NCBI GenBank assembly: GCA_021731365.1 | Contig: JAKFXL010000017.1 | Location: 41,755 to 105,754 of the forward strand | Source: Gammaproteobacteria bacterium | GTDB taxonomy: Bacteria; Pseudomonadota; Gammaproteobacteria; Tenderiales; Tenderiaceae | Direction of reading: 5' to 3' | Length of the DNA: 64,000 bases | Shown here: positions 1-7,969 of the stretch, one piece after another | Numbering within the stretch: position 1 is the stretch's first letter | How the letters are laid out: each line of letters begins with the position of its first letter | Made by a program: the position numbers and the translations under genes | The notes under the pieces: model-generated | What the model saw: only the letters and a program-made list of their open reading frames with translations | Database searches by the model: none | Told to the model about the DNA's origin: nothing

Positions 1-126
1 GTTTTCCAGGGGGGTGATGGTGGTCTTCCCCGCTTTGCGACGGACAACCGTGAGGGTGGCGGTCTGGCGGTCACCGGCGTAATAGGCCAACGCAAAATCG
101 ATATTTTTGTTTTCTGGTACGCTCAT
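1..126 (-). CDS. hypothetical small protein, truncated by the window edge (N-terminus MSVPENKNIDFALAYYAGDRQTATLTVVRRKAGKTTITPLEN...)
   Basis: Open frame on the minus strand with ATG at 126..124 preceded by AGGAAG; runs off the window start. Co-oriented immediately downstream of the 103-aa ORF and tae4. No family recognised. Confidence 0.3.
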   Translation of the reverse strand, partial: MSVPENKNIDFALAYYAGDRQTATLTVVRRKAGKTTITPLEN

Positions 127-175
127 CTTCCTGCCTCTGATCTGTAAAACACGTGTGAATAGGGTTGTAATGGGG

Positions 176-487
176 CTATTCTGCCGTCGTTACAACCTCT
201 TGTATGAGGACCCAGGGGGCGACCACAACGGTCCAGAAGTCCGGCTGGCGTTCAACCCAGTCTCGGGCATCGTCGAGGGTTGGGTGGCCAATTTGCCCCG
301 CTTCCATCCATGTTGCCACGGCGGGTTTATCATCTTGAATGATCTGTGTGGCGGCTTCAATCAAGTCTAAATTGGTGGCGACCTTGATGACGACACCCCG
401 TGCGAAGTGGCGCTCCAGTTCAGGCCACGCCAGTCGTGCGGTCTCAGCATTGAGGCGGATACGCAGTGTTTCTTTTGATTCATCCAT
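176..487 (-). CDS. hypothetical 103-aa acidic cytoplasmic protein (possible orphan immunity or antitoxin-like)
   Basis: Six-frame ORF with native-like GC and protein-like composition and no signal peptide. Lies directly downstream of tae4 on the same strand, 49 bp before the next small ORF. Confidence 0.4.
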   Translation of the reverse strand: MDESKETLRIRLNAETARLAWPELERHFARGVVIKVATNLDLIEAATQIIQDDKPAVATWMEAGQIGHPTLDDARDWVERQPDFWTVVVAPWVLIQEVVTTAE

Positions 488-586
488 GGTGATCTACGCT
501 CTGTTGAATAGTCTGCAGGTCGATATATCGCCACAAACGAGCGTTGCGGAGATTTGTCCGAGTGGATTTGTATTGTTAGCCATTTT

Positions 587-5619: not shown

Positions 5620-5701
5620 GATGCTGGGCTGGAGTTGATTTTTGTCTGTCATAAATTCCCGCAAGGTAGTCCAGTGGCATGTACAGGGCAGCTGCTTAAA
5701 G

Positions 5702-6337
5702 GATTATTGAAATTTAATAAGGACGTGTGAAAAAGCCATGCAAAAAGCGGAACCCCAACCAGCGAAAGTACAAAACCAACCGGCCTCCCAGCAGAGGGGC
5801 GGCGGGGTGGCCGACTCCCCACAGGCTGAACAGATCGCGCAACTTGAGGCGATGGTTGCAGCCAGTTCACATCAGGCAGCGTTGCAGAAGATGGCGGACG
5901 GGATGCATAACAGCCTGCGCCAACGGACGGCGCAAAACTTTTTAGAAGGCATCAACAACTCCCCGAAGATGGTGGCGCAACGCATGCGGCATGAGCAGAT
6001 GTTCGGTGTGGCGCAGCTGGAGAAACAGGCCGAGGCCAAACCCAACAATACGGGGCTGCCGGATAACCTCAAATCCGGCATCGAGAACCTCTCCGGGATG
6101 TCGATGGACAACGTCAAGGTTCACTACAACTCGGACCAGCCCGCGCAACTCAACGCCCTGGCCTACGCGCAAGGCAGTGACATCCACCTCGCGCCGGGGC
6201 AGGAGCAGCATCTGCCGCATGAGGCGTGGCATGTCGTCCAGCAGGCGCAGGGTCGGGTGCAGCCGACGATGCAGATGAAGGAAGGTATGCTGGTCAATGA
6301 TGACAAGGGGCTGGAGCATGAGGCGGATGTGATGGGG
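5702..6337 (+). repeat. direct repeat copy 2 of the DUF4157 5' module
   Basis: See copy 1. The offset between copies is 1852 bp. Confidence 0.85.
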
Positions 6338-7969
6338 GCCAAGGCGCTATCGCCCGCCGCTCAGCTCAAAGGCGGGCATGCGGAAGAGCGACTCTTGCAA
6401 GGAAAACTCGCGCCAGCGCAGCGCCCGGAACTTAAACAGGGTGCATCTGCCTTGAAGGAGACAGCATCGCTACGCAAGCGGTCAGATCAGGCCAATACAT
6501 TTTGTTGTCTGCAGCGCAAGATCGAGCGCGGAAGCAACACGGGCTGGGGCGGTTTGTGGTGGGTCACTGATGGCAAGGCACTCTGGGGCCAAATCGACAA
6601 AGGGTTCAATGTAGATCTATTTGCCCTTCAAACAGATCTGCAAGCGCAGAAACCAACGACTGAAGCCATTGACTCGGTACTTGAGTCGATCAACACTTTC
6701 ATCAAATTCTGGGATGGCCGCGACCAGATATACTACGCTGCGAATCCTGAACGAAATCAACCGATCAGTGCTGCCGAGCTCGCTGAAAAAATTGATGCGG
6801 AACTGACTGGCGGGCGTCAGGCCCTTGAGGCCGCAAAGGAATCGGCATCCATGCGAGAAACAAAAACGGGGCCTTCCGATGTCGCGCTGAAAGAAAAAAA
6901 GACACGGGTAAAAAAAGGGAATGCCACAGCTAATCCACGCGTGAGTGGATCAACCAAAGGCGAAGCGAGGGTGACGGATATTCCAGTGTCCATCACTTCG
7001 GCTACGAAACAACCAGATGTCTCTCCCACGCGAGTTAACCCCTCGGTCAAGCCTAAAGCGACCACTGTTAAGCCGCCACGAGGACCGTCAGCCAAGGAGC
7101 TAGAAGCTGCGCGTCAGGAGGAGCGCAGGCAGGCTAACGCAGTAAAGAAAGCGGAAAACGCGGAACGCCAAACGTCTGTAGCGAATTTCGGGAAGATACT
7201 CAGTGAAAAAACAAACTCCCTCATCACATCTGAGAAGATTAACCAATGGCAGACTTGGTCTGGTGAACTAGATACTTTAGTTACGAAGGCTAAGCAGAAC
7301 CCCAACCTCGAACCGGCGTTGAAGAAGCTCTACGATGAGTGGACCAAGAAGCTCGTAGAGAAACGGGAGGCCAATGAGATCGAACGGCGCGGAACCAAGA
7401 AGCAATGGGAAACCTGGACCGGACTCAATGACTACCGCGTGATCGAAAACCTGCCGGGGGCTATATTTACACCAGCGCGCGCGCCTACTCAGGGACCCAT
7501 GACTGAGCAGGGCGAGGGGCCGGCCGAGCAAAACGAGGCTCCGGCCCCGTTAGAGATTCATGTCACCTACGACACCAATTCGGTGCGGGCACCGACAGAC
7601 TCAATTAATGGGATGGCTGCCCCCCTATTGGTTGACCACCTGCTTAGCACCTACTCTGTGTGGCAGCGTATTCACGGCTCGCTCGAAACATCTTACGGAC
7701 CACCTTACCCGCACATTTATTGGGGAGGAGATGATCTTGGCTTAGGCGCAGCGCGTTACTCTCAATGGAATGCAATGCCCGAGGGTTGGTTGCCAGGGCC
7801 GGAAGGAGCCGTTGCCAAGACGAAAGTCGAATCGGTGCTGAACGACTATGTCGCCGATAACATCGTGCCGCTTGTGCAATCGCACCTGTCGAGCGTGATG
7901 TTTAAAGTCTATGTTTGGCCGATGTTCGCGGAGTTAAATTCGCCCTCCAACAAGGAAGTCGTCAAGTAG
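5738..7969 (+). CDS. DUF4157 (zincin-like HExxH) domain protein, paralog 2, with long unrelated C-terminal region
   Basis: 743 aa. The first ~200 aa are identical to the upstream paralog. After that comes an unrelated sequence: a K/E/A/T-rich low-complexity linker, then a globular C-terminal region (…HVTYDTNSVRAPTDSINGMAAPLLVDHLLSTYSVWQRIHG…). No TM anchor. Confidence 0.7.
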   Translation: MQKAEPQPAKVQNQPASQQRGGGVADSPQAEQIAQLEAMVAASSHQAALQKMADGMHNSLRQRTAQNFLEGINNSPKMVAQRMRHEQMFGVAQLEKQAEAKPNNTGLPDNLKSGIENLSGMSMDNVKVHYNSDQPAQLNALAYAQGSDIHLAPGQEQHLPHEAWHVVQQAQGRVQPTMQMKEGMLVNDDKGLEHEADVMGAKALSPAAQLKGGHAEERLLQGKLAPAQRPELKQGASALKETASLRKRSDQANTFCCLQRKIERGSNTGWGGLWWVTDGKALWGQIDKGFNVDLFALQTDLQAQKPTTEAIDSVLESINTFIKFWDGRDQIYYAANPERNQPISAAELAEKIDAELTGGRQALEAAKESASMRETKTGPSDVALKEKKTRVKKGNATANPRVSGSTKGEARVTDIPVSITSATKQPDVSPTRVNPSVKPKATTVKPPRGPSAKELEAARQEERRQANAVKKAENAERQTSVANFGKILSEKTNSLITSEKINQWQTWSGELDTLVTKAKQNPNLEPALKKLYDEWTKKLVEKREANEIERRGTKKQWETWTGLNDYRVIENLPGAIFTPARAPTQGPMTEQGEGPAEQNEAPAPLEIHVTYDTNSVRAPTDSINGMAAPLLVDHLLSTYSVWQRIHGSLETSYGPPYPHIYWGGDDLGLGAARYSQWNAMPEGWLPGPEGAVAKTKVESVLNDYVADNIVPLVQSHLSSVMFKVYVWPMFAELNSPSNKEVVK

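Follow-up and report, generated by a model that had tools for sequence, protein, structure and literature searches.

Why should cargo genes of two different contractile injection systems lie side by side on a segment of DNA that encodes neither machine? The question is raised by the left-hand 8 kb of a 64-kb stretch of a Tenderiaceae genome (the whole 64 kb is called the window here, and coordinates refer to it unless a related locus is named). Two plus-strand genes with DUF4157 domains of the kind found in extracellular contractile injection systems (eCIS), termed cargo genes A and B, diverge there from a minus-strand string that includes a Tae4/Rap1a effector/immunity pair of the kind that belongs to type VI secretion systems (T6SS). 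An earlier account made from the letters of the DNA (the sequence-only reading) had drawn these genes together into one composite toxin depot island. The comparison with related loci described below makes a different explanation probable, namely that the 8 kb hold two unrelated accessory insertions flanking two core genes: a cargo-exchange site for a remote eCIS and an acquired Rap1a-Tae4 bicistron.

Gene families were assigned by Pfam and NCBIfam profile scans of the window open reading frames (ORFs), and PDB sequences were also searched. Relatives of the window were picked by rnd synteny in reference genomes and were compared by tblastn of the window proteins against the related loci, together with ORF maps; L and P numbers denote the related loci and proteins compared. 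This synteny puts the window within or beside Candidatus Tenderia; the best match was L001, the RNase D of which is 96% identical. The ORF map bore out the sequence-only reading as to where the genes lie and as to their divergence around a 158-bp intergenic region.

The variable site between rnd and the propeller gene

The pair of plus-strand genes had been read as DUF4157 genes, and both indeed match PF13699 (eCIS_core) at residues 107-172, with 35.9 bits for A and 35.5 bits for B (cut-off 22). From the ATG onwards the two genes are identical over 602 bp (3886-4487 and 5738-6339); they are unrelated from the codon after ‘...EADVMGA’, and the encoded C-terminal parts have nothing in common past residue 201. 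The shared module consists of a hydrophilic leader (residues 1 to ~ 95, with a grand average of hydropathy of -0.68 over the first 50 amino acids) and the DUF4157 domain, which contains an HEAWH (HExxH) motif. Both genes are long intact ORFs with a host-like GC content at third codon positions (GC3) of 0.63-0.68.

Moreover, nearly every relative has a different content at the rnd-propeller site, which holds 0, 1 or 2 genes and, overall, six different cargo ends. All of these genes encode the ~ 95-residue leader, usually followed by DUF4157 and then by differing C-terminal cargo. The site is empty in L002 and L005, rnd and the propeller gene being immediate neighbours there; L001 has one gene, for a 330-residue protein, L004 one for a 972-residue protein, and L003 and the window have two each. 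One of the L003 genes is of the A type, its C-terminal part being 91% identical to that of A and its shared module 75% identical. The single intact gene of L026 (1495-2343, 282 amino acids) joins the leader, without DUF4157, to yet another C-terminal part. At the DNA level, homology between the window and L001 extends from 2 to 4489 and resumes at 7977, and homology with L026 ends at 4163. Judged from these alignments there are two discrete junctions, one after the ~ 95-residue leader (4163) and one after the DUF4157 domain (4487-4489). The features by which polymorphic toxins are recognized, a conserved N-terminal part, a sharp junction and unrelated C-terminal domains, are all present at the rnd-propeller site.

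The sequence-only reading had taken the locus to be accessory and had called for a comparison across relatives. For the toxin-type parts that view is upheld: their content is not identical among relatives, the rnd-propeller site varies as described, and the Tae4/Rap1a genes are foreign in composition and were not found in the compared parts of L003 and L004. It was also right in placing rnd on one side; this gene converges on cargo gene B, with a gap of 9 bp between B and the rnd stop codon.

CdiA-CT and Rhs-CT orphan arrays are polymorphic toxin loci with C-terminal replacement and promoterless orphan ends. The rnd-propeller site resembles them in its conserved N-terminal part, in the sharp junction to unrelated ends, in the differences between strains and in the recombination-prone repeat carried by tandem copies. 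It differs in that both Tenderia-lineage copies are complete genes with their own start and upstream element, that the site is without immunity genes, and that the delivery marker is that of eCIS and not that of contact-dependent inhibition or Rhs.

An element of ~ 60 bp (…TACAGGG…TTTAAAGGATTATTGAAATTTAACAAGGACGTGTGAAAAAGCC-ATG; 3820-3885 and 5670-5737) stands ahead of every leader gene in the window, L001, L003, L004 and L026, with a 13-bp deletion ahead of gene A. The last ~ 36 bp of the divergent intergenic region (3850-3885) are correspondingly similar to 5701-5737 ahead of gene B. The element may be a promoter or a regulator site; a promoter/terminator scan gave counts no higher than in shuffled sequence and did not flag it on the coding strand, and there was no Rfam match in the scanned region. 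In L026 an IS110-family transposase gene (42-1151) lies beside the 282-residue gene, and the contig ends at this insertion sequence (IS) element.

Effector ends and the link to eCIS

DUF4157 is a core marker of eCIS loci (odds ratio 2614), where it is typically N-terminal to toxin domains, its own role being unknown (PMC8213781). It is present in 36% of known eCIS toxins versus 0.06% of other proteins, and for 88% of known eCIS-associated toxins (EATs) the operon is no more than ten genes away (PMC11297309). Within the genus, the supplementary tables of Geller et al. 2021 (PMC8213781) assign two eCIS operons to Candidatus Tenderia electrophaga NRL1, and DUF4157 toxins have been predicted beside the NRL1 operons (Danov et al. 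2024, PMC11297309).

The relatives of the shared module point in the same direction. Three of the four sampled homologues (P0124, P0042 and P0053) are encoded just downstream of eCIS operon-end genes; all three have an AAA ATPase gene as a neighbour and a methyltransferase gene nearby, and one has a contractile injection system (CIS) tape-measure gene. The metagenome loci L037-L039, with a leader 41-42% identical to that of the window, hold arrays of one to four DUF4157 genes. A gene for a 935-residue protein and a DUF4280 gene, both present in the terminal part of the eCIS locus L022, recur in these loci, and the methyltransferase gene is found in one of the three.

A and B themselves are built as EATs with DUF4157 are, with a hydrophilic leader, an N-terminal HExxH-containing DUF4157 domain, linkers and a variable C-terminal effector part (PMC8213781, PMC11297309). 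Further points of likeness are the several tandem copies, the absence of an adjacent immunity gene and the position of module relatives at eCIS operon ends. They depart from known EATs in their surroundings: the neighbours are a housekeeping gene and lineage-core genes, and the 64 kb contain no eCIS gene, so that the proximity of about ten genes to an eCIS operon, a frequent but not absolute feature, is not seen in the window. Both C-terminal domains are, in addition, rare and unannotated, A ends in a transmembrane (TM) helix, and the L026 leader is without DUF4157. Conservation of DUF4157 itself is unusually strong: proteins from Nitrosomonas, Methylobacter and further distant lineages share 80-88% identity with the ~ 110-residue core present in A and B, to which > 5,000 clusters match at E < 1e-10.

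The C-terminal part of A matched five 90%-identity clusters, A itself included, among 5.8 billion clusters. In this family (A residues 201-577) a conserved core with invariant Cys303, His347, Asp355 and Asp358 is followed by a charged helical region, and the TM helix of A spans residues ~ 551-569 (nucleotides 5536-5592). A Cys-His hydrolase or transglutaminase-like activity is a guess prompted by the invariant residues; the family profile gave only noise against PDB sequences, and Pfam, NCBIfam and PADLOC scans of A and B returned eCIS_core only. The A-type domain also occurs apart from leader genes: P0004 has neither leader nor DUF4157 and its gene adjoins thiC, and in the JGI metagenome loci L016-L021 (~ 10001-11041) the domain forms a stand-alone protein of 346 amino acids, the gene of which has thiC as its neighbour on ten contigs and a gap of 450 bp upstream.

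In B the shared module is followed by a middle TGWG/WDGR module (~ nucleotides 6488-6739), a Lys/Pro-rich linker, a coiled coil and a last domain (nucleotides 7535-7966); its C-terminal part had 14 matches, B itself included, among 1.84 billion representatives. P0167 and P0169 keep the TGWG/WDGR module but end in a barnase-type RNase (PF00545), and P0169 starts with eCIS_core. Because these two proteins carry the RNase at the equivalent place, the last ~ 140 residues of B are predicted to occupy a toxin slot.

Together, these features suggest how the site may work. Its genes would combine a portable N-terminal module with C-terminal effector domains that are swapped at two fixed junctions, and A and B would most likely be payloads of an eCIS that we infer to be encoded elsewhere in this genome. 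In such a payload, particle loading would be the task of the N-terminal module, and the C-terminal domain would exert its effect, presumably a toxic one, in the target cell. For A this would be the effect of an enzyme anchored in the membrane, which may be of the Cys-His type, and for B that of the last domain, in the slot where relatives have a barnase-type RNase.

The core gene pair and the Tae4/Rap1a cassette

Between the two toxin-type parts lie the genes for a 425-residue protein and a 272-residue protein. The first had been read as a beta-propeller, a label that rests on weak YVTN-type matches (TIGR02276 YVTN repeat below cut-off, E 0.0025; PDB 1l0q, E 2.9e-5). The second had been called a DUF2059-like secreted protein. 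Its N-terminus is indeed signal-peptide-like, but the DUF2059 label was dropped: no Pfam or NCBIfam family matched, and hmmscan up to E 5 gave only noise, with no DUF2059 match. The propeller gene adjoins rnd or the variable site in L001-L005 (68-99% identity), and the 272-residue gene comes after it in L001-L004 and L026 (78-97% identity); in all relatives reaching that far (L001-L004 and L026, with the propeller also in L005) they follow rnd. Because they do so with or without toxin genes, both are, on this comparison, lineage core genes rather than toxin cargo. Two adjacent Tenderiales-specific orthogroups, ALP54212.1 (an LVIVD beta-propeller) and ALP54213.1 (a signal peptide and no prediction), have been tied by the authors describing them to surface attachment (bioRxiv 10.1101/2022.05.06.490989). 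The window pair fits their description, an adjacent propeller and exported protein kept across the lineage, and the attachment role proposed there has no tie to toxins.

The minus-strand string has the gene layout that the sequence-only reading gave it, but it is not uniform, and only 488-1568 is compositionally foreign. The GC content of this cassette is 0.389 versus 0.558 for the rest of the window, and the GC3 values of its two genes are 0.26 and 0.39 versus about 0.68 in the host. The Tae4 and Tai4-like labels given to these genes proved correct. The Tae4 protein matches PF14113 (E 3e-17, 63.2 bits, cut-off 27), Ssp1 in the PDB (4bi3, E 8e-55) and Tae4 (6ijf, E 3.6e-30). Its Asn53, Cys55, Tyr133, His137 and Asp139 align with Ssp1 Asn48, Cys50, Tyr129, His133 and Asp135, residues whose roles were described in PMC3852654, so that the catalytic Cys-His(-Asp) set of NlpC/P60-CHAP-type enzymes is present; Cys150/Cys154 align with the Ssp1 disulfide Cys146/Cys150. 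The protein is without a signal peptide. Its partner matches PF18602 (Rap1a family; E 1e-11, 45.5 bits, cut-off 27.7), Rap1a in the PDB (3zfi, E 8e-21) and Tai4 (6ijf, E 1e-6). Both disulfide cysteines of Rap1a (roles from PMC3852654) are aligned, and there is a hydrophobic N-terminal export segment with its maximum at residues 8-26. The end of rap1a overlaps the start of tae4 by 19 nt, so that Tae4 has the adjacent immunity gene expected of such an effector.

The pair is present in L001 at 93-96% identity (93% for Tae4) and also in L026 and L029; in L003 and L004 other genes come after the 272-residue gene, which in L004 are cbbO/cbbQ-like ORFs by size and sequence. No genome with an empty cassette site was found, and relatives with the DUF2288 gene and second propeller gene, described below, all carry the cassette. 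The cassette DNA had no match among plasmids, and in the protein search the only matches were distant Tae4 genes of Rhizobium. The Rap1a-Tae4 pair is flanked exactly by a perfect inverted repeat of 11 nt (TTTTATGTCAA / TTGACATAAAA, at 585-595 and 1488-1498), which is kept in L001, L026 and L029. The repeat could be a cassette end mark or chance, about one such match being expected by chance in an AT-rich stretch.

By these sequence criteria the cassette is an intact, horizontally acquired, stand-alone T6SS-type effector/immunity pair, with T6SS genes absent within reach. It resembles the Ssp1-Rap1a pair of Serratia marcescens in sequence, in the catalytic Cys/His/Asp residues and in the disulfide cysteines of both proteins (PMC3533786, PMC3852654), as well as in its adjacent, overlapping genes and in the export segment carried by the immunity protein only. 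The Serratia pair is inside a T6SS gene cluster, whereas in the Tenderia lineage the pair stands by itself as a low-GC cassette, surrounded by core genes and without T6SS genes in the vicinity, and the gene order differs, the immunity gene coming first in the cassette. Once delivered to a rival's periplasm by a T6SS, the presence of which in this genome we infer, Tae4 would cleave the gamma-D-Glu-meso-diaminopimelic acid bond of peptidoglycan, and periplasmic Rap1a would shield the producer and its kin.

Two small ORFs beyond the cassette had been proposed as orphan immunity genes. The 103-residue protein is acidic as described (pI 4.6) but is a full-length member of DUF2288 (PF10052; E 5.9e-32, 110 bits, cut-off 25, profile positions 2-91 of 91), which rules it out, and no test made pointed to immunity. 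Its gene has a host-like GC content of 0.56 and adjoins the second propeller gene also in L001, L026, L028 and L029; there was no mention of DUF2288 in the literature searched. The ORF at the window edge is ruled out likewise, as the start of a 419-residue propeller paralogue. This second propeller is ~ 40% identical to the 425-residue propeller and is kept in L001, L026, L028 and L029.

Table 1. Features at the left-hand end of the window.
Feature	Position	Strand	Basis
Propeller paralogue, first 42 codons of 419 aa, cut by window edge	1-126	-	97.6% identical to start of L001 14428-15687
DUF2288 protein, 103 aa	176-487	-	PF10052
Low-GC foreign cassette with Rap1a-Tae4 bicistron	488-1568		Composition
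Tae4-family peptidoglycan DL-endopeptidase (predicted), Ssp1-like, 167 aa	587-1090	-	PF14113, PDB 4bi3
Rap1a-family (Tai4-type) immunity protein, 140 aa	1072-1494	-	PF18602, PDB 3zfi and 6ijf
Secreted-type 272-aa protein, apparent lineage core gene	1569-2387	-	Signal-peptide-like N-terminus, conservation
YVTN/LVIVD-type beta-propeller, 425 aa, apparent lineage core gene	2450-3727	-	Weak YVTN match, PDB 1l0q
Divergent intergenic region, 158 bp	3728-3885		ORF map
Shared N-terminal module, copy 1	3886-4487	+	Identical to 5738-6339
Cargo gene A, 577 aa: leader, DUF4157, rare C-terminal domain, C-terminal TM helix	3886-5619	+	PF13699
Spacer between cargo genes A and B, 118 bp	5620-5737		Aligned; also before second copy in L003
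Shared N-terminal module, copy 2	5738-6339	+	Identical to 3886-4487
Cargo gene B, 743 aa: leader, DUF4157, TGWG/WDGR module, linker, coiled coil, last domain	5738-7969	+	PF13699
rnd (ribonuclease D), right-hand fixed border of variable site	7979-9145	-	TIGR01388, E 9e-118

Elsewhere in the window, a 21-nt tandem duplication (81% identical) was noted at 9384-9425, within a PAS/methyl-accepting chemotaxis gene (9187-10743), and a gene for a dynamin-family GTPase of 662 amino acids (60398-62386) lies amid housekeeping genes.

Alternative explanations and significance

Several observations weigh against the view that A and B serve a remote eCIS. Neither the window nor, as judged from relatives, the 10 kb past its left edge showed a gene of an eCIS or a T6SS. 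The scanned large ORFs outside the dcw cluster included no structural gene of either system and were all housekeeping by Pfam (argJ, coaBC, genes for a sulfate permease and an ABC-F protein, and others); for the dcw cluster and secA the judgement came from ORF size and order alone. The literature on Tenderia had no mention of a T6SS or CIS. The window genome is a metagenome-assembled genome and not NRL1, so that the eCIS evidence is at genus level only; the window leader was not found in the part of the Danov et al. 2024 toxin tables covered, and two predicted DUF4157 toxins of NRL1, the sequences of which are given in that part, have different N-termini. Linkage to eCIS is not universal among module homologues, since the fourth one sampled, P0133, is far from eCIS genes in a defence/IS island. 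The C-terminal parts of A and B had no match even in a relaxed Pfam scan, and AlphaFold2 models on shallow alignments were unusable (pLDDT, the predicted local distance difference test score, 52 for A and 46 for the last domain of B). No ORF for an immunity protein fits downstream of A or B, in 118 bp or 9 bp respectively. Finally, such genes can decay: in L003 both DUF4157 genes (9333-10226 and 10345-12133, minus strand) are disrupted, the one, of the A type, by a frameshift at the module junction and the other by an internal deletion that has taken out the DUF4157 domain and by a leader with two in-frame stops. This is probably real decay and not an assembly error because the split form recurs on six contigs.

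The L003 disruptions and the lack of machinery in 64 kb would also be expected of stranded cargo, that is, of neutral passengers decaying after their machinery was lost or where it was never present, with Rap1a maybe kept as a defence against the Tae4 of neighbours; machinery-less contexts do exist for the relatives P0133 and P0004. That the genes are stranded is nevertheless considered unlikely. A and B are long and intact with host-like GC3, the C-terminal part of A is better conserved in L003 than the shared module (91% versus 75%), Tae4 has all catalytic residues at 93% identity to its L001 counterpart, the 602-bp perfect repeat points to recent, ongoing exchange, and eCIS operons are on record for the genus (Geller et al. 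2021, PMC8213781). A still less probable arrangement would have all of the cargo serve one T6SS, the DUF4157 proteins being effectors delivered along with Tae4 and comparable with Pseudomonas VgrG2b, which ends in a DUF4157-type metallopeptidase. A genuine T6SS effector pair does lie 2.8 kb away, and DUF4157 sometimes occurs in T6SS effectors, according to PMC11297309, which cites Wood et al. 2019. Against this, A and B have no Pfam-detectable PAAR, VgrG, Rhs, MIX or similar domain, eCIS_core being their sole Pfam match; an N-terminal DUF4157 before variable ends is the eCIS toxin layout (PMC8213781); eCIS operon-end genes accompany three of the four relatives sampled and each of the three metagenome loci; and the immunity genes needed by antibacterial T6SS effectors do not accompany A or B.

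The explanation from which the analysis set out, a single depot island in which T6SS-type cargo, eCIS-type cargo and orphan immunity genes were gathered as one unit, now appears very improbable, although two kinds of toxin gene do fall within 8 kb, both kinds vary among relatives, and the IS110 transposase gene adjoins the locus in L026. The propeller and 272-residue genes that split the two insertions follow rnd irrespective of toxin genes; the parts differ sharply in composition (GC 0.39 versus 0.56) and are not present or absent together, L003 and L004 having DUF4157 genes but no Tae4/Rap1a in the parts compared; and of the two ORFs supposed to be orphan immunity genes, one belongs to DUF2288 and the other is a piece of a propeller gene. 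The marks of a mobile island are missing too: there is no tRNA gene in the window, Pfam detected neither an integrase nor a transposase among the genes of 1-9145, and no flanking direct repeats were found around the locus. It looks, then, as if the juxtaposition of T6SS-type and eCIS-type cargo is a coincidence of two independent events.

Loci of both kinds are well known already, and in the two-insertion explanation preferred here it is by coincidence that the cargo of two systems appears combined. The interest of the locus lies rather in its cargo genes. eCIS particles are being engineered as protein-delivery tools, and the determinant of payload loading is still unclear; here a single leader occurs naturally with six cargo ends, in one case without DUF4157, and this series hints at a minimal portable unit. 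The locus also adds two rare uncharacterized candidate effector domains. More tentatively, and as a possibility that the evidence does not yet favour, the rnd-propeller junction might be a dedicated payload-switching site for a far-off eCIS, with the leader, alone or together with DUF4157, serving both as loading signal and as homology handle for swaps, the payloads being strain-specific and A and B new effector types. If so, close strains would carry different payloads, the new effectors would be an enzyme that is anchored by its tail and has an invariant Cys-His-Asp set (A) and, in the slot that holds a barnase-type RNase in relatives, a protein of unknown fold (B), and the intact leader-only gene of L026 would show that DUF4157 is dispensable for loading. 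For Tenderia, an uncultivated electrode-oxidizing autotroph, the locus points to active antagonism, or to interaction with a host, in biofilms.

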